From positions 1-17,258 of the forward strand of contig JAZDPL010000085.1 of NCBI GenBank assembly GCA_043797665.1: a DNA stretch of 17,258 bases, in the 5' to 3' direction. The notes under the pieces are model-generated. The model saw only the letters and a list, made by a program, of their open reading frames with translations. It did not search any database and was not told where the DNA came from. Positions 5,176 through 17,258 of the stretch are shown piece by piece. The position numbers and the translations under genes are program-made. Origin of the DNA: Candidatus Omnitrophota bacterium. Its GTDB lineage: Bacteria; Ratteibacteria; UBA8468; MWAK01. Numbering within the stretch: position 1 is the stretch's first letter; every line of letters starts with the position of its first letter.

Positions 5176-5187
5176 TAATTTCTCACC

Positions 5188-5214
5188 AGATTCTTCACTG
5201 CGTTCAGAATGACA
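5188..5214. repeat. TGTC/CGTC-tagged REP-like single unit
   Basis: AGATTCTTCACTGCGTTCAGAATGACA, homologous to the units at 7442-7499, 14617 and 16982. Confidence 0.8.
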
Positions 5215-5310
5215 ATGATTAGAGTATTTATAAAAGGGGAGAGGCTGATTTCTTGAGACATACTCAAAAACCAACGGGGCAATAAATTCGTAATGCTTGT
5301 TTCTTTTAAC

Positions 5311-7420: not shown

Positions 7421-7441
7421 TATAAACCTCCGTCTTATGTT

Positions 7442-7499
7442 TGTCATTCTGAGCAAAGCGAAGAATCTGAGATCCTTCGGCTGGCGCCTCAGGATGACA
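7442..7499. repeat. inverted doublet of TGTC-tagged REP-like units (REPIN-like)
   Basis: TGTCATTCTGAGCAAAGCGAAGAATCT-G-AGATCCTTCGGCTGGCGCCTCAGGATGACA; the two halves are imperfect reverse complements. Confidence 0.85.
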
Positions 7500-7516
7500 T
7501 AAGTGCCCTATCCCAT

Positions 7517-10954: not shown

Positions 10955-11716
10955 TCACTCCAGACGAACCGGGATACCCCGGCCGGACAAAAACTCTTTT
11001 ACCTGCTTAATAGTATACTCGCCGTAATGAAAGATGCTTGCCGCTAAAACCGCATCAGCCCGACCTTCGTTTAAAACTTCATAGAGATGTTCTAATTTGC
11101 CCGCCCCACCGGAGGCGATAACCGGCACCGTAACCGCCTCCGATACCTTCCGGGTAAGAAGAACGTCATAGCCGGACTTCGTCCCGTCTTTATCCATACT
11201 GGTAAGGAGAATTTCACCCGCGCCCAGGGTTACCACTTTCTTCGCCCAGTCAACCGCAGAGAGTCCGGTGGGCTTCCGGCCGCCGTAAGTGTAGACCTCC
11301 CATTCCTCCGGTCCGGACATCTTGGCATCAATCGCCACCACCATACACTGATTACCGAACTTCTCCGCGCCGGTAGCAATTAAATCCGGATTTTCCACCG
11401 CACTGGTATTCAGGGAAACCTTATCTGCACCGGCCCGCAGGATATCCTTGATATCAATAATATTCCTGATACCGCCACCCACGGTCAGAGGAATAAAGAC
11501 CGAACCGGCTGTCTTCTCCACTACCTCCAGAAGAGTACCCCGTCTCTCAAAGGAAGCGGTAATATCAAGAAAAACCAGTTCGTCTGCTCCTTCCTGACTG
11601 TAAGTGGCGCCGGCCTCAACCGGGTCACCGGCATCCCTGAGGTTCTGAAAGTGTACTCCCTTAACGACCCGGCCGTCTTTCACGTCTAGACAGGGAATAA
11701 TCCGCTTGGTCAACAT
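10955..11716 (-). CDS. hisF: imidazole glycerol phosphate synthase cyclase subunit
   Basis: [66 protein letters not shown]. Confidence 0.99.
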
Positions 11717-11778
11717 AGGCCCCCTTATCTCTTTATTGTGCCAAAATGCCCCATAATTGTCAAATCGTCGTCGTCACT

Positions 11779-11809
11779 CCCCACCATCCTGTCGCAATCA
11801 GTTTTGACT
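11779..11809 (+). repeat. motif B copy 1
   Basis: CCCCACCATCCTGTCGCAATCAGTTTTGACT. Confidence 0.85.
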
Positions 11810-11896
11810 TACCCTAAACTTTGGGTAATTCGATACGGGGGAGTTGTACGTCTTCAGCCAGCGGTGGACAAACTGGGCCTTTTCTTATGTGTTGAA

Positions 11897-11995
11897 GGAG
11901 AGTTGAACAAGGTTCGAACCGGAATCAGGCTTAAAATACCCCCCTTTTCTTGTTATCCCCCCTACTCCACCCTCCAGTCGTAATTAACTTTGACT
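11897..11995 (+). repeat. short A-B unit (motif A 11897-11920, motif B 11960-11995); direct repeat of 16776-16872
   Basis: GGAGAGTTGAACAAGGTTCGAACCGGAATCAGGCTTAAAATACCCC...TGTTATCCCCCCTACTCCACCCTCCAGTCGTAATTA aligns end to end with 16776-16872. Confidence 0.9.
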
Positions 11996-12018
11996 TGACT
12001 TTAGCAAGGTGATAACAT
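11990..12018 (+). promoter_or_regulatory. sigma70-type promoter, -35 lying in motif B
   Basis: TTGACT (11990-11995), 17 nt, TGn-TAACAT (-10 at 12013-12018), upstream of the 12080 gene. Confidence 0.6.
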
Positions 12019-12079
12019 TTAGAGAGGCCAATTACAAACCCAGTGTGTATATTAAATATCAACAAGGAGGGTATACAAG

Positions 12080-13258
12080 ATGCCTACTCGACAAAACAGA
12101 TTAAGGTGGCTAGGAAGGTATGACAGCGGTATAGTACAGAAAACCAAGTTGGATATTATTTTATTTCTTTTTTGTTCCATCATTTTTGCAGTTTTTTCTT
12201 CTGGTGGGTCTGAAGAACAGCCGACGGATACAATCATCACCGTCATTGTTGATAAAAGAGGTGGAAGAGTAGATTGGTCACATACCAATAATATAATAAC
12301 TCACTGTAGGTATGGCTATGACGGATATTATGATTTATGGACAATGAATCCGGACGGTTCTGGGGCGAAATGTCTGACAGGTAATAAACCGGGCATTCCT
12401 CAATTACATAATGGACAACCAACATGGCATTCCAGTGGTAAATATATTGTCTTTCAATCTCAAGACCCGGCCTTACCCCATACCAAAGAAATAGATTATG
12501 CTTACACCGAAGCAGGACATGGCTTACACAATAATCTCTGGATTACCAATCCCGAAGGCGACAAATTTTATCAACTGACAAAAATTAAAATAGGCGGAGC
12601 GATACTGCATCCCTGTTTTTCTCGCGATGGCAAAAGGCTTTTATGGTCGGAAAAGGTTGGTAAGAATTCATTAGATTGGGCAATTAAAATTGCTGATTTT
12701 ATTGAAACTCCCACGCCCCATCTAGGAAATATAAAATCATATCAACCAGCGGGAAAAACATGGTACGAAGCACACGAGTTTTCTGTAGATGGCTCAAAAA
12801 TTCTATGTACTATCGGGTCGGGTACCGAGGCTTATTACAATTATGACATTTGGGAAATGGATATGGCAACGCAAAAATTAATCCAATTGACTAATACGCA
12901 GGATGAGTGGGACGAACATGCCCATTATTCACCTGACGGGAAAAAGATTTCTTGGATAAGTAGCAAAGGATATCCGTATAACCCTTCCAAGTGGGGACTA
13001 ACTCTCAAAACGGACTTGTGGATAATGGACGCCGATGGTTCCAACAAAGAAAGAATTACATATTTTAACGAGCCGGGTTATCAAGAATATACCGGCAAAC
13101 AAATGGTTATGTCCGACAATAGCTGGGGCCCGGATGGGAAAAAAATAGTGGCAATCATAATGGCTCCAAAAATGGGCCGGAAATCTGCCCAGATAGTTAT
13201 AATAGATTTGAAAAAGGCGCTGCTTCGGTCCAAAAAGAAGGTGGTATCCTATAATTGA
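12080..13258 (+). CDS. exported TolB-like/PD40-repeat beta-propeller protein
   Basis: AGGAGG SD; hydrophobic N-terminal segment; repeated P.WS.DG-type blades (PTWHSSGK, PCFSRDGK, FSVDGS, AHYSPDGKK, SWGPDGKK) and LW.M..DGS motifs. Confidence 0.85.
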   Translation: MPTRQNRLRWLGRYDSGIVQKTKLDIILFLFCSIIFAVFSSGGSEEQPTDTIITVIVDKRGGRVDWSHTNNIITHCRYGYDGYYDLWTMNPDGSGAKCLTGNKPGIPQLHNGQPTWHSSGKYIVFQSQDPALPHTKEIDYAYTEAGHGLHNNLWITNPEGDKFYQLTKIKIGGAILHPCFSRDGKRLLWSEKVGKNSLDWAIKIADFIETPTPHLGNIKSYQPAGKTWYEAHEFSVDGSKILCTIGSGTEAYYNYDIWEMDMATQKLIQLTNTQDEWDEHAHYSPDGKKISWISSKGYPYNPSKWGLTLKTDLWIMDADGSNKERITYFNEPGYQEYTGKQMVMSDNSWGPDGKKIVAIIMAPKMGRKSAQIVIIDLKKALLRSKKKVVSYN

Positions 13259-13344
13259 CTTTGGCAGGCTTGGGAAATTCCGAATAATCAATCCTTTTGT
13301 TTCTATTAGTCCAGAACTATATTGTAATATTTAAAAATTCGCCA

Positions 13345-13499
13345 CTGGGACGAGTGGACGACTTCCGAACTTTTAAGTGGCTTGAAACCATCCCCTACCC
13401 TCAACAGATGCTATTGAAAATCAAGGACTTTCTGCAATTTTCACCTGATTTCTCAACTTCCTTCCCTAAGAATCCCTACTCCACCATCCAGTTACAATT
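13345..13499 (+). repeat. long A-B unit (motif A 13345-13370, motif B 13474-13499); direct repeat of 14661-14828
   Basis: Shares e.g. AACAGAT(G/A)CTATTGAAAATCAAGGACTT and TGCAATTTTCACC with the 14661 copy. Confidence 0.92.
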
Positions 13500-13528
13500 C
13501 AGGATTTATGCTGAGTGTGTAGTGGGTG

Positions 13529-13557
13529 TTGACATAATTAAACTTTTATATTATTAT
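13529..13557 (+). promoter_or_regulatory. promoter of toxin-antitoxin operon
   Basis: TTGACA (13529-13534), 17 nt, TATTAT (13552-13557), then AGGAGG SD. Confidence 0.75.
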
Positions 13558-13577
13558 ATCAAACAGGAGGAAGGAAT

Positions 13578-13802
13578 ATGGTTACTACAACCGTAAGATT
13601 ACCGGAAGAAAAACTAAAATTGACTAAAGCGATTGCTGGATATGAAGGCAGGTCTTTGAGCAAAGTCTTTGAAGAGCTGGTGGATGAATATATCATCATG
13701 CATCGGGAAACGATGGAACTTCTCAATATTCCGGGGTTTGAAATGGAGTGTCTCCAGGGACTGGAGGAAATAAGGAAAGGCAAAGGCAAGAGGCTTGGAT
13801 GA
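13578..13802 (+). CDS. type II antitoxin (RHH-like N-terminus)
   Basis: TTTVRLPE...AGYEGRSLSKVFEELVDEYI; acidic C-terminal half with ETMELL; ATGA overlap with the toxin. Confidence 0.8.
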   Translation: MVTTTVRLPEEKLKLTKAIAGYEGRSLSKVFEELVDEYIIMHRETMELLNIPGFEMECLQGLEEIRKGKGKRLG

Positions 13803-14068
13803 AATGGGAAGTTCAATTATCCTCTAAGGCAGAAAAATATTACCACCGGTTACCCGAGAAAATAAGAAAAAAAGTTCTTACTGAACTTTTCAAGTTAAGT
13901 ATACTGGATATAGTCCTTTCTCATCCGGATGTAAAACCATTGATTGGAAAGCTGAAGGGGTTTTATCGCCTAAGGGTTGGGAAATACCGCGTTATCTTCG
14001 GTCTCTTAAAAAATGAGGGCATTATCGCGGTGGTAAACATCCATCCGAGAGGCGATGTCTATAAATAA
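13799..14068 (+). CDS. RelE/ParE family toxin
   Basis: MKWEVQLSSKAEKYYHRL...VKPLIGKLKGFYRLRVGKYRVIF...IHPRGDVYK; start placed at ATG 13799, coupled to the antitoxin stop. Confidence 0.9.
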   Translation: MKWEVQLSSKAEKYYHRLPEKIRKKVLTELFKLSILDIVLSHPDVKPLIGKLKGFYRLRVGKYRVIFGLLKNEGIIAVVNIHPRGDVYK

Positions 14069-14070
14069 AA

Positions 14071-14298
14071 ATGGAAGAGATGGACGGGTTCGAACTGGGG
14101 AGGGTGAAAACCATCCAAGATTTTCGGCAGTTTTACAAAAATATCATCATTAAGATAAAAGGAAGCCACATTACCATCAAAATGCCAACCGGACAATTAA
14201 TAACCATTCCGGTAACAAAAGAGTTGAAGATTGGACTGTTAAAAGACGCATTACGAAAGGCAGGACTTACTGAAACTCAATTTTCGGAACTTTCATGA
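14071..14298 (+). pseudogene. chimeric/5'-truncated HicA-family toxin remnant
   Basis: C-terminal IKGSHITIK...ITIP...ELKIGLLKDALRKAGLT fits HicA; the first ~22 codons derive from motif A and its tail; no hicB seen. Confidence 0.65.
14072..14135 (+). repeat. motif A copy with internally deleted long tail
   Basis: TGGAAGAGATGGACGGGTTCGAACTGG then ATCCAAGATTTTCGGCAGTTT (IQDFRQF, compare IKDFLQF in the long units). Confidence 0.7.
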
Positions 14299-14571
14299 GG
14301 ACATGGCATCAAACACCCTTACCTTGATTAGACAAAGGTTCTCTTTATTGATGACCTCATAGATTTCGTTCAAGTTTTGCTGATTTGGTTCTTGTTTGTT
14401 GTCAGTCAAGTAAAAGGTGTTTAATCCATGAAAAATAATATTTGCCCTACTATTTATAGTTTCGGGATTAAACTGCGATACGAAAAGTAGACTATATTTC
14501 ACACTTAAATTGCTTATTATTGTTCTTCTTATCTGGATTATACTCTGCGTATTCCGGTCCATGGGAGCCAC
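14293..14571 (-). CDS. hypothetical protein or gene fragment
   Basis: 92-codon ORF in AT-rich DNA, AGGTGAG-like SD near the start; no recognisable motif. Confidence 0.3.
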   Translation of the reverse strand: MAPMDRNTQSIIQIRRTIISNLSVKYSLLFVSQFNPETINSRANIIFHGLNTFYLTDNKQEPNQQNLNEIYEVINKENLCLIKVRVFDAMSS

Positions 14572-14603
14572 TCACCTGTAGTAAACGTCGGTACACTACA
14601 GAA

Positions 14604-14664
14604 TTCGCAATGACTGAGATTCTTCGGCTTCGCCTCAGAATGACAGAAGGAAATTTTTAGCTGG
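14604..14664 (+). repeat. REP-like unit plus flanks; direct repeat of 16969-17030
   Basis: TTCGCAATGACTG(A/G)GATTCTTCGGCTTCGCCTCAGAATGACA...AATTTTTAGCTGG at both sites. Confidence 0.9.
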
Positions 14665-14828
14665 GAGAGGTGGATGTATTTCGAACCTTTCAATGGTTAG
14701 AAACTATTCCTTACCCTTAACAGATACTATTGAAAATCAAGGACTTCTTGCAATTTTCACCCGATCTCTTAACTTCCACCCCTCCCTATGAATCCCCTAC
14801 CCCACCATCCCGTCGCAAATAGTTTTGA
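14661..14828 (+). repeat. long A-B unit (motif A 14661-14687, motif B 14795-14828)
   Basis: Colinear with 13345-13499. Confidence 0.92.
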
Positions 14829-14853
14829 TTAGTATCTTAAAATGTGGTATGCT
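14825..14853 (+). promoter_or_regulatory. sigma70-type promoter, -35 lying in motif B
   Basis: TTGATT (14825-14830), 17 nt, TGn-TATGCT (-10 at 14848-14853), upstream of the pilin-like gene. Confidence 0.6.
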
Positions 14854-14899
14854 TTAATATGATTGGGTTCTATCTGTCTTTTAAGAGTACAATACTCAC

Positions 14900-15487
14900 G
14901 TGCAAAATGCGGTGATTAAAAAAAAGAAACGTAACTTCACCCTAATCGAACTTCTGGTTAGTATAGCTATTATCACCCTGTTAGCAGCGATGATTCTAAG
15001 CGCAATCTCCCGAACAAGAGAAAAAACCCAAAGTATTGTCTGCCTTAATAATCTCAGGCAGTTAGGATTGGCAATTCAAATGTACACTCAGGATAACTAC
15101 GAGAACTTACCCAGTGAAATTGGTTGGATAGATGAAGTGAGTAAGTATGTATATGAGAAAGAAGAAATCTATTCCTGCCCATCAGAAAAGAACAAAAGAG
15201 GTGCTACCGACTACGGATATAATGCCAAGGCAGCCAATAGAAAGTTGTCGGGCAGCAACCACGTTGGCATTTTTCCCCTTATCTTTGACCGTAACCCAGG
15301 GGCAGATCCGGTCCTGGCCGCTGACCCTGACCCGGGCAGTCCTAACTATTATGCTAATTTTTACTATGACTTCTGCTCCAACCGGCATTATGGCGGTACA
15401 AATTTCCTCTTTTTAGATGGTCACGCTACCTGGATTAAAGCTCCGATGAGTGCAGAAATTAACATCCTAAATTTTAATCCTGAGTGA
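14900..15487 (+). CDS. prepilin-type N-terminal cleavage/methylation protein with DUF1559-like region and H-X9-DG motif
   Basis: KKKKRN-FTLIELLVSIAII, CLNNLRQLGLA, CPS, RHYGGTNFLFLDGHA. Confidence 0.9.
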   Translation: MQNAVIKKKKRNFTLIELLVSIAIITLLAAMILSAISRTREKTQSIVCLNNLRQLGLAIQMYTQDNYENLPSEIGWIDEVSKYVYEKEEIYSCPSEKNKRGATDYGYNAKAANRKLSGSNHVGIFPLIFDRNPGADPVLAADPDPGSPNYYANFYYDFCSNRHYGGTNFLFLDGHATWIKAPMSAEINILNFNPE

Positions 15488-15494
15488 TAACCTG

Positions 15495-16481
15495 TTACTT
15501 TGCGTCTTTGACACAGCGGAACCCTAATTTTGTCGCCGCAGTTGTTCCCTTAAACCGTACAAAGGTAGAGAGTTCAGCCGAACCATCTTCAAATGATCCT
15601 CCTTTAACTACCTTCCAACGCTTATTACCGGCGCTGTAAGGAGTGGCGGTCCACTCCCGGACATTACCTGCCATGTCAAAAACACCAAAAGAACTGCAGT
15701 CAAATGGAAAACTGCCCACCGGCATTGTTGTCCCTCTGCTTGCTGGATCGCCCTGACTGTTGGCCATTGTGGGTTTATAATCATTTCCCCATGGATAGGT
15801 AAGACCTTCATTCCCCCGAGCCGCCCATTCCCACTCTTCTTCGGTCGGCAACCTTTTTCCCCGCCAGTTTGCATAGCTTTCGGCATCTTCACATGTAACA
15901 TTGACCACCGGATGGTCGGCAAACTCTGCTGGATAACCACCGTCGTGCCAGATATCATATTTTGCACCCCTGGGATCGGCCGGTGCTTTGTAACCGGTCG
16001 CCTTAACAAAATCATAATACTGGCGGTTGGTAACTTCGTATTTATAAATATAGAAAGCCGTCATCTGGTTCTTTACAGGTTTTCCGTTCTCATCCCAACC
16101 CATAACGTATTCACCCCCGGGAATCAAAACCATGCTTTCTGAAGGCACTGAAACTGACGTTGTTCCTGTTGGCACTGAACTACCACCGCCTCCGGTACTC
16201 GGTACGGAATATTCCACAGTCGCTTGGGATTGAGGTTGGAGACCAACAACCCCCTTTTTCATTTCAGTAGGACTGGCAGTAGTATGCTCTTTTATTACCG
16301 TACTTATCTTGCGGTATATTTTGAATCCAAGCAAACTCAAACCAGCAATTACACCAAGAGTGACCAAAATTCGGAAAAGAATTCGGATCTTTTGAGGAAT
16401 GGGGTTCTTTGGAGGAGATGATTTGATTAATTTAATTATCTCGGCCGCATCTTTTTGTTCAATAAGAATCTTCGGTGACAT
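15495..16481 (-). CDS. membrane-anchored FGE-sulfatase (SUMF1/EgtB-like) domain protein
   Basis: N-terminal TM helix, Ser/Thr/Gly linker, EVTN.QY, HPVVNVT..DA, RLPTEEEWEWAARG, DMAGNVREWT, KGGSF, GFRC. Confidence 0.9.
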   Translation of the reverse strand: MSPKILIEQKDAAEIIKLIKSSPPKNPIPQKIRILFRILVTLGVIAGLSLLGFKIYRKISTVIKEHTTASPTEMKKGVVGLQPQSQATVEYSVPSTGGGGSSVPTGTTSVSVPSESMVLIPGGEYVMGWDENGKPVKNQMTAFYIYKYEVTNRQYYDFVKATGYKAPADPRGAKYDIWHDGGYPAEFADHPVVNVTCEDAESYANWRGKRLPTEEEWEWAARGNEGLTYPWGNDYKPTMANSQGDPASRGTTMPVGSFPFDCSSFGVFDMAGNVREWTATPYSAGNKRWKVVKGGSFEDGSAELSTFVRFKGTTAATKLGFRCVKDAK

Positions 16482-16662
16482 ATTAGTATAATCACCTTAA
16501 AAAATTGGGCTCAATCAGTGTAATATGTTAGCAATTCTAAAAATTACTACCTTATAATTTATCCTATTTCTCAGAATAAGTCAATTATTTGGTTTACTGA
16601 CTTTGCCAAGACTTTTCTGTAAAATTGGGTAATTATTATCAGAAAGGAAAAATGGGGCACCG

Positions 16663-16746
16663 CTGGGAGGATTGGACACTATCCGAACCGCCTTTCATAG
16701 ACTGGATAAGTACGTTTATATCCCCAAGATGAGCCTGCCAGCTTAG
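16663..16746 (+). repeat. motif A copy opening a different orphan coding tail
   Basis: CTGGGAGGATTGGACACTATCCGAACC...; reads LGGLDTIRTAFHRLDKYVYIPKMSLPA*. Confidence 0.7.
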
Positions 16747-16775
16747 GTTTCCGCTGTTTTTTCGGTCAGGTAAGA

Positions 16776-16872
16776 GGGAGAGGTGGACGGGTTCAAACTG
16801 GTATCAGACTTAAAAATACCCCCTTGTCTCCTGTTATCCCCCCTACCCCACCATCCAGTTACAATTAGTTTG
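16776..16872 (+). repeat. short A-B unit (motif A 16776-16800, motif B 16841-16872)
   Basis: Colinear with 11897-11995. Confidence 0.9.
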
Positions 16873-16968
16873 GTTTTAGGAAGTCATACACTATGGCGAA
16901 AGAAGTCTGTATGGGGTCGTCCGTCAAGGCAGTTGCCAAACGCCTTCTTACACTGAAGTTCCGGTAGG

Positions 16969-17030
16969 TTCGCAATGACTGGGATTCTTCGGCTTCGCCT
17001 CAGAATGACAAAGGGGTAATTTTTAGCTGG
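16969..17030 (+). repeat. REP-like unit plus flanks, second copy
   Basis: Near-identical to 14604-14664. Confidence 0.9.
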
Positions 17031-17084
17031 TAAGGTTGCCAAACTCTTTGTCTATTAACGACTCCTGACTATTACATATCCAAG

Positions 17085-17116
17085 TACCCCACCGTCCAAT
17101 CGCAATTAGTTCTTGA
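17085..17116 (+). repeat. motif B copy 6
   Basis: TACCCCACCGTCCAATCGCAATTAGTTCTTGA. Confidence 0.8.
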
Positions 17117-17232
17117 TCCTGAAATTCCGACATAAGAAGTTTTTTAGGGTTAAAGCCTGTGCTGCACACGCCGGCGTGGGACACAAGTCAATTCCGCCGG
17201 ACGGGGGAGGATTAAAACAGGAGGTGGCTACC

Positions 17233-17258
17233 ATGACCGGAACGGGTGGCTACTTTAC
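17233..17258 (+). CDS. probable start of a gene running off the window
   Basis: AGGAGG (17219-17224) 8 nt before ATG; MTGTGGYF... Confidence 0.45.

Follow-up and report, generated by a model that had tools for sequence, protein, structure and literature searches.

Repeats in a Ratteibacteria cassette array are very probably detached tails of serine integrase genes that contain their own attachment site

The window analysed here, a 17,258-nt stretch of Candidatus Omnitrophota bacterium DNA, is the entire contig C90 of genome G000 (assembly of 2.69 Mb in 93 contigs, 86% complete) and carries long repeats between its genes, two of them starting at positions 13345 and 14661. Comparison at the sequence level indicates, with high confidence, that these repeats are the detached last 30-40 codons of large serine recombinase (LSR) genes that span their own attachment site. 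The original prediction, made from the window alone, had read them as 3' ends of an integrase gene cut at an internal att site, and the C-terminal homologues found in full LSRs bear this out. Each tail opens with a tRNA-like segment, motif A, a candidate attP arm, and the tails punctuate an array of small cassettes.

A profile built from seven tails returned 136 matches at E<=1e-3 among 1.84 billion representative proteins, with 110 of the 136 ending within 5 residues of the C-terminus. These extreme C-terminal matches include P0138, a 549-aa LSR composed of Resolvase, Recombinase and Zn-ribbon domains whose residues 518-549 form the tail; C-terminal LSR fragments are also among them, for example P0194, which matches an LSR C-terminal profile at E 4e-66, and P0196. 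Most matches are short open reading frames (ORFs) with an unrelated leader followed by the tail, in a ratio to LSRs that is biased because clustering at 50% hides full-length LSRs behind tail-less representatives. For the second tail family (LGGLD..YVYIP, at 16663 in the window), the profile matches the C-terminus of the LSR P0081 at E 1.4e-12, with no match in the reversed control. The resemblance to C-termini of tRNA-targeting LSRs, suggested with the original prediction, proved sound: the tail terminates complete LSRs, which here target tRNA-Gln(CTG). Many records labelled Patescibacteria contain the tail family, and its profile matched 6 of 41 related genomes, G000 included.

At the DNA level, pattern matching across the genome collection yielded 44 loci, of which some overlap. 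The tail is in frame with a full LSR at 4 of them, and at all 4 loci having a tRNA gene in the flank that gene is convergent with the tail. The LSRs of L085, L072 and L073 contain all three domains and that of L096 two of the three; the 136-aa frame of L076 reached no significance against the LSR profile and is not counted. Joins to truncated bodies are also preserved: on contig C44 of G000 a 96-aa LSR remnant (L017:6682-6972) runs in frame into an LGGLD-family tail, and in the relative G006 (L039) a similar remnant runs into a long-family tail. Pfam is silent on these remnants, which were assigned by pairwise BLAST (E 2e-5 to the LSR on contig C75, E 7e-22 between remnants). Viral contigs gave 45 pattern matches, none confirmed by tail alignment. 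In the AlphaFold2 model of a tail-bearing LSR (mean predicted local distance difference test score, pLDDT, 86.8), the tail follows a disordered linker and is helical (pLDDT 83-87); the best Protein Data Bank matches of the model are serine integrase-DNA complexes (E 4e-21). A predicted complex of tail and LSR body scored 0.01, which gives no answer and counts as evidence neither way.

The C75 LSR, measuring 555 aa, possesses Resolvase and Zn-ribbon domains and a weak, below-cut-off Recombinase match. It reads antisense into tRNA-Gln(CTG) and ends WLGEVDSNHH (C-terminus WLGEVDSNHHTQIQSLKSYR), sharing LGEVD with the 14661 copy. Sorting its 120 homologues by regular expression yielded 68 tRNA-antisense-type ends, 13 attP-type tails and 39 that are short or other. 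Only two LSR genes pass Pfam cut-offs in G000, an incomplete genome from whose assembly more may be absent; six tyrosine recombinases are also encoded, none within the array. Behind the C75 LSR lies an element (L018:2670-7416) with ThiF/E1-like, E2-like and ubiquitin-like small genes and an ATPase, all recognised by eye, which is possibly a ubiquitin-like defence module.

The two long copies have diverged in the manner of protein-coding DNA. Over 35 aligned codons (13345-13449 against 14661-14765), the translations read as first reported and 15 codons differ, 10 synonymously and five not, the latter being R/E, D/V, K/Q, Q/stop (TAA, 14718) and M/I. The 20 nucleotide differences are distributed 5/2/13 over codon positions 1/2/3 (third-position excess, p=0.004), corresponding to a ratio of non-synonymous to synonymous proportions (pN/pS, Nei-Gojobori) of 0.146. 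Random placement of the differences, with transitions and transversions kept, yields a mean of 4.1 synonymous codons against the 10 observed (p=0.003), and removal of the nine att-arm codons gives a pN/pS of 0.09 (p=0.009). The third-position bias persists in a larger set of nine copies from G000 and the same-genus genome G001, with a pooled pN/pS of 0.20 over codons 10-31 (pairs not independent); pS lies at 0.3-0.9 in 35 of 36 tail pairs. The antisense frame sharing third positions displays a similar bias (10 synonymous and 10 not, over 123 nt) and has stops in both copies. Divergence of this coding type would have arisen because the tails evolved under protein selection inside intact LSR genes.

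Homology begins abruptly at CTG, as originally described, with no start codon common to the copies, and comparison of the orphan-tail flanks revealed no start or Shine-Dalgarno consensus. Leaders upstream of the tails are unrelated among copies. The 14661 copy is preceded immediately by an in-frame TAG, and at 16663 an in-frame stop lies 11 codons before the tail with no in-frame start between; the 13345 copy has an in-frame TTG 16 codons upstream, a mechanical candidate only, with no Shine-Dalgarno sequence visible. Related peptides were confirmed at other motif A copies, namely LGGLDTIRTAF..YVYIP at 16663 and GELNKVRT at ~11897.

Motif A resembles a tRNA 3' end in antisense. The reverse complement of 14661-14674 is the 3' end of tRNA-Gln(CTG), exact over 14 nt and the same as the LGEVD codons of the C75 LSR, and the T-loop word in motif A is displaced by a 5-nt spacer absent from the tRNA. 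Scanning the whole genome for the T-loop word, n bases and a tRNA 3' end gave 42 rows at n=5 (28 places by our count) and 5 in the reversed sequence, and the clustered +5 sites correspond to tRNA-Gln(CTG), tRNA-His and tRNA-Asn. According to passages of PMC3783163, the motif bound by the zinc ribbon of serine integrases is 5 bp more distal in attP than in attB. Since the +5 displacement matches this shift, motif A can be read as one attP arm mimicking the tRNA acceptor and T-arm, and its tRNA-like segment as probably a P arm that belongs to the element, in place of a host tRNA end that was displaced. A GGATT head is present at 4 of 4 sites with the YVYI tail and at 0 of 9 with the long tail, and so the head appears to travel with the element. 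Undisplaced (+0) tRNA fragments also occur elsewhere in G000, and many tRNA genes (Pro, Ile, Ser, Tyr, Ala, Met, Cys, Leu) are followed at a distance of 100-200 nt by a short duplicate of the tRNA 3' end, a class distinct from motif A.

Upstream of the tails only the adjacent base is conserved, with G at -1 in 31 of 34 sites of G000 and relatives and, separately, in 31 of the 34 genome-scan sites that have enough flank (36 given). The tRNA-Gln(CTG) genes of five genomes diverge immediately after C74, and the end of one RelE-type cassette is joined, exactly between AG and CT, to an LGGLD tail in G000 and to a long tail in G001. Based on the conserved -1 base, the post-C74 divergence and these AG/CT junctions, the crossover is placed at tRNA N73/C74, a position that would leave the tRNA whole; sequence common to both partners is limited to the crossover dinucleotide. 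The free arm displays no consensus out to -45 except at -1 and, weakly, at -3/-4, and no second ZD motif (zinc-ribbon domain site) that would make the site two-armed and pseudo-palindromic, in a pool of element lineages that may hide lineage-specific motifs.

The array occupies the right part of the window, where backbone homology to G001 stops at ~11771, just upstream of hisF (blastn and alignment), and has a GC content of 41.6% against 47.7% for the backbone. B boxes were located by position weight matrix (PWM) scan. Its features are as follows.

10955..11716, minus strand: hisF (Pfam PF00977), backbone gene bounding the island's far end
11775..11807, plus strand: B box (PWM scan), a lineage-specific motif of ~33 nt, usually followed by a TTGAC word
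11894..11920, plus strand: secondary E-type att-like half-site (GELNKVRT), its head without CTGGG; this type follows the LGGLD tail in intact modules
11961..11993, plus strand: B box (PWM scan)
12080..13258, plus strand: cargo, 392-aa protein with a PD40 (WD40-like beta-propeller) repeat
13345..13371, plus strand: putative attP arm (motif A), comprising an antisense tRNA-Gln-like 3' end, 5-nt spacer and T-loop word; crossover placed just before 13345
13345..13467, plus strand: probable orphan LSR tail, long family (LGRVDDFRTFKWLETIPYP...), in which, compared with intact 42-codon G001 copies, a small deletion has removed the tail's own stop
13475..13507, plus strand: B box (PWM scan), then a sigma70-like promoter at 13529-13557 (11/12 matches)
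13578..14068, plus strand: cargo, RHH/DUF6290-like antitoxin (weak matches) and ParE/RelE-family toxin
14071..14298, plus strand: cargo, HicA-like ORF whose 5' end overlaps a degenerate E-type half-site (+4 spacing)
14604..14660, plus strand: cassette end (free arm) with a REP-like hairpin repeat; a second copy of this end lies at 16969-17023, and in G001 it precedes a different tail
14661..14687, plus strand: putative attP arm (motif A), first 14 nt the exact tRNA-Gln(CTG) 3' end in antisense
14661..14786, plus strand: probable orphan LSR tail, long family, interrupted by a premature TAA (14718-14720)
14796..14828, plus strand: B box (PWM scan)
14900..15487, plus strand: cargo, prepilin-type N-methylation/DUF1559 protein
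15495..16481, minus strand: cargo, FGE-sulfatase-domain protein
16663..16746, plus strand: putative attP arm and probable orphan LSR tail, second family (LGGLDTIRTAF...YVYIPKMSLPA, then stop)
16774..16874, plus strand: E-type half-site (+4 spacing) and B box (16842-16874)
16969..17115, plus strand: duplicated free arm, fused at CTGG to a post-tail module that has lost its tail, then B box (17083-17115)
17107..17258, plus strand: 12-bp target-site duplication (17107-17118) and left end of an insertion sequence (IS), whose 26-bp terminal inverted repeat starts at 17119

The window contains no tRNA gene, an Rfam scan of 11000-17258 gave no match at E<=5, and long inverted repeats are absent from the cassette joints. 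REP-like hairpin repeats are found at 14604-14645, 16969-17010, 7433-7503 and 5187-5223, with dozens of copies in the genome.

At its right end, C44 carries the opposite end of the IS flanked by the 12-bp target duplication of C90, and the C90 array is therefore taken to continue into C44; a second contig pair carries its own, distinct IS target duplication. The joined array would span ~22 kb, from hisF at the distal end to a second tRNA-Gln at C44:7518-7589 at the proximal end, and contains seven motif A sites and no intact LSR, only the 96-aa remnant. An earlier assignment to the tRNA-Gln on the leuB side of C75 was withdrawn, since the IS duplication ties C90 to C44. A full IS copy, with a ~590-aa ORF and a small upstream ORF, lies near G000:C44:380-2505. 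The second tRNA-Gln(CTG) gene of the genus is present at G000:C44:7518-7589 and G001:C28:2877-2948; the acceptor stem of the G000 gene contains a G-G mismatch, and this gene may survive chiefly as a landing site. ARAGORN called no tmRNA and no tRNA-Asp on the G000 assembly, probably owing to assembly gaps.

Cargo on C44, named by eye, comprises toxin-antitoxin pairs, a superoxide dismutase-like gene, a carA/carB-like block and two-component genes. A segment of it (L017:7217-14358) with glutamate-synthase-like, GAF/ANTAR-like, carB and carA genes, likewise identified by eye, is 94-98% identical to G001, which also has a more distant carB (66%); the carA/carB block would represent housekeeping nitrogen genes carried as cargo. 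The orthologous G001 array holds mostly different cargo, and the cassettes common to G000 and G001 are 94-98% identical against ~88-90% for the backbone and have other neighbours. The differing cargo and high cassette identity therefore point to fast turnover and recent exchange. Accordingly, the claim that different tails record repeated independent integrations holds in part: tail divergence fits it, and some cassettes have apparently moved recently between species as units.

A parallel, fully assembled array on contig C61 packs 10 sites into ~28 kb before tRNA-Asn (G000:C61:53981-81926), with tails homologous to those of the window. Parallel tRNA-Asn and tRNA-His arrays with +5 sites occur on C61, C62, C64, C52, C9 and C17, and both tail families are paired with more than one tRNA specificity. 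Decay is visible as a premature stop, a lost stop, a frameshift and deleted tails.

The B box, with a consensus near CCCCACCATCCAGTCGCAATTAG, has 54 copies in the genome and none in the reversed control, usually before a TTGAC word. It follows all three window motif A sites by 130-179 nt and, genome-wide, 8 of 25 sites, and only 8 of the 54 boxes have motif A within 400 nt upstream. Strongly expanded in the genus, it also stands before tRNA-Gly and tRNA-Val, and one copy is interrupted by an IS. Its 21-mer pattern matched 4 of 41 related genomes and no viral contig. An origin as a tmRNA or tRNA-Ala 3' remnant was dropped in view of its 54 copies ahead of TTGAC words and its presence in arrays belonging to different tRNAs, and a role as a universal part of the system was rejected on the 4 of 41 genomes and 8 of 54 boxes; the B box is a lineage-specific accessory of cassette heads.

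We propose that a family of mobile elements with an LSR of ~550 aa inserts at the extreme 3' end of tRNA genes, targeting tRNA-Gln(CTG) at the window array and tRNA-Asn and tRNA-His elsewhere in the genome. Its attP would lie inside the LSR gene, ~30-40 codons before the stop, and integration would split the gene, leaving the body beside the tRNA and reading into its antisense, and the tail with the attP arm at the far end. Tails would have diverged within intact LSR genes of different element lineages and would now be decaying (a stop within one tail, loss of the stop in another, deletion of a third). Through repeated insertion at one tRNA and loss of the LSR-bearing parts, a stack of cassettes of 1-3 genes would build up. 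In this scheme the LSR would make the junctions, the T-loop word would serve as the site of its zinc-ribbon domain (ZD), and the second arm would be biochemically unconstrained; LSR bodies might be removed by LSR-mediated deletion to pseudo-sites or by ordinary decay, and the tail might change LSR activity. E-type half-sites (11894-11920, 14071-14096 and 16774-16799, also on C44 and C61), spaced +5, +4 or +0 and often lying ~110 nt past an LGGLD tail, may be pseudo-sites for such deletion. The C75 LSR gene itself contains words resembling GTTCGAAC, and the start of a G006 LSR remnant lies close to one.

Several observations weigh against this reconstruction. A recognisable LSR body is kept at only 2 of 36 sites, leaving the loss step unexplained, and the C90-C44 join crosses an unassembled IS, the duplication being its sole link. 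The T-loop word sits at 20-27 in the P arm and 15-22 in the tRNA, ~3-4 bp further out than the ZD motif of LI integrase (16-24 and 11-19). The 13345 site has A, not G, at -1. The C44 tRNA-Gln carries a damaged 3' segment similar to one of the P-arm types, a hint that exchange may now and then fall within the tRNA. A single 41-aa tail searched among longer proteins gave one candidate, and none was scored.

A broader reading, to which we assign an appreciable but minority chance, is that the arrays are integron-like platforms on which cassettes lacking an integrase are moved in trans by an LSR elsewhere, for instance on C75. The tRNA site would then act as attI and each P-arm junction as attC, with only one arm specific, and blocks would be excised, reinserted in new order and exchanged between species; this extends the split-gene reading without contradicting it. 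The gene-sized cassettes, the 10 sites of C61 in a genome with two LSR genes above Pfam cut-offs, the high identity of cassettes that have different neighbours in G001, the duplicated cassette end in the window and the unconstrained free arm all favour it. However, the array is visibly decaying, homologous recombination between tails or B boxes could shift cassettes without an LSR, a YjbQ-like cassette on C77 lies between two B boxes with no motif A, and more LSRs may be missing from the incomplete genome.

Tentatively, this picture may be carried further, to a one-armed serine integrase that is the analogue of an integron and whose helical tail, present only in the attP state, switches between integration and excision. 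Such an enzyme would see only the tRNA-mimicking arm, attL and attR would stay substrates, and DNA architecture therefore could not set direction, which would depend on the gene itself. The attP state would exist on the circle or after insertion of a further cassette between a resident LSR body and the tRNA, and integrase-less cassettes would be captured, reordered and traded between species at several tRNA genes.

It is very improbable that the tails are independent small genes, such as trans-acting regulators or directionality factors, still selected in the chromosome. The strong pN/pS signal would suit such genes, as would an internal stop in only 1 of 9 long-family copies over the stretch examined, a helical fold predicted in the LSR context and the many databases that call short ORFs here. 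However, no consistent start exists among copies, leaders are unrelated, in-frame stops stand directly upstream of several copies, that at 14661 included, and the latter is itself interrupted at 14718. That tyrosine-integrase islands displaced a host tRNA 3' fragment to give motif A, with a coincidental coding signal, is barely credible: six tyrosine recombinases and +0 tRNA fragments do occur in the genome, but the +5 displacement, the heads tied to tail family, the pN/pS of 0.09 outside the att arm and the tails that end real LSRs, as in P0138 and the in-frame loci, contradict it.

The split-gene reading, if correct, would explain how uncultured small-genome bacteria collect accessory genes at tRNAs. 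Island finders expecting tyrosine integrases and exact tRNA fragments would miss such junctions, and read-through of such tails apparently accounts for ~120 short 'hypothetical proteins' in public sets. If an LSR truly needs one arm only, the tRNA 3' end, it could provide a tool for integration at native sites.

The closest published case is that of the DsiB/ssrA islands of Dehalococcoides, which limits the surprise. As described in passages of McMurdie et al. 2011 (PMC3146451), dsiB encodes a ~540-aa serine recombinase whose 3' end overlaps attL, with no stop inside the island; islands stand in tandem at one RNA gene (ssrA), 15 of them without integration modules, which there comprise six genes (dsiA, parB, mom and others); and DsiB was proposed to be complete only on the circle or behind an adjacent island. 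The layout is common to both systems. They differ in target (tRNA-Gln, -Asn and -His here, the tmRNA gene ssrA there), in the crossover, mapped to N73/C74 here and placed in the T-loop in those passages, and in the cassettes of 1-3 genes here. Main-text passages of the same paper call DsiB C-termini divergent and define no conserved orphan tail. The 2011 question of whether an attP-encoded tail controls activity or direction becomes directly testable. Apart from DsiB/ssrA, our literature search, in which subscription papers were poorly covered, turned up no account of conserved orphan LSR tails at tRNAs or of LSR cassette arrays there. The general layout is already published for ssrA. Serine integrases are given as not known to target tRNA genes in Islander 2014, site-specific serine integrative mobilizable elements as disrupting dispensable genes in PMC5704250, and the word 'tRNA' appears 0 times in the main text of Durrant 2022 (PMC10083194).

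With the LSRs A118/LI, phiC31 and Bxb1, the enzymes share the order of Resolvase, Recombinase, Zn ribbon and coiled coil, a dinucleotide crossover and the 5-bp motif shift between attP and attB. Unlike LI integrase, for which sections of PMC3783163 give ZD motifs on both arms, a consensus is found on only one arm here, the motif lies 3-4 bp further out and attP lies inside the gene. The tyrosine integrases of SSV (PMC7253208) and phage Mx8 (PMC4383910) have genes that span attP and are split or rewritten on tRNA integration, as here; they belong to an unrelated enzyme family, and here only 30-40 C-terminal residues are detached. Cis-mobilizable elements (CIMEs) formed by tandem accretion (PMC5704250) and tycheposon islands (bioRxiv 2020.12.28.424599) likewise involve repeated insertion at one tRNA and decay to integrase-less units that keep att sites, though mostly with tyrosine recombinases and duplicated tRNA fragments. 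The arrays have the CIME trait of lost integration genes and retained att sites in tandem at a target gene. Integrons, finally, share the array of small cassettes, the many toxin-antitoxin genes and the repeated joints, whereas the joints here appear to be LSR half-sites and many cassettes carry their own promoter-like module.

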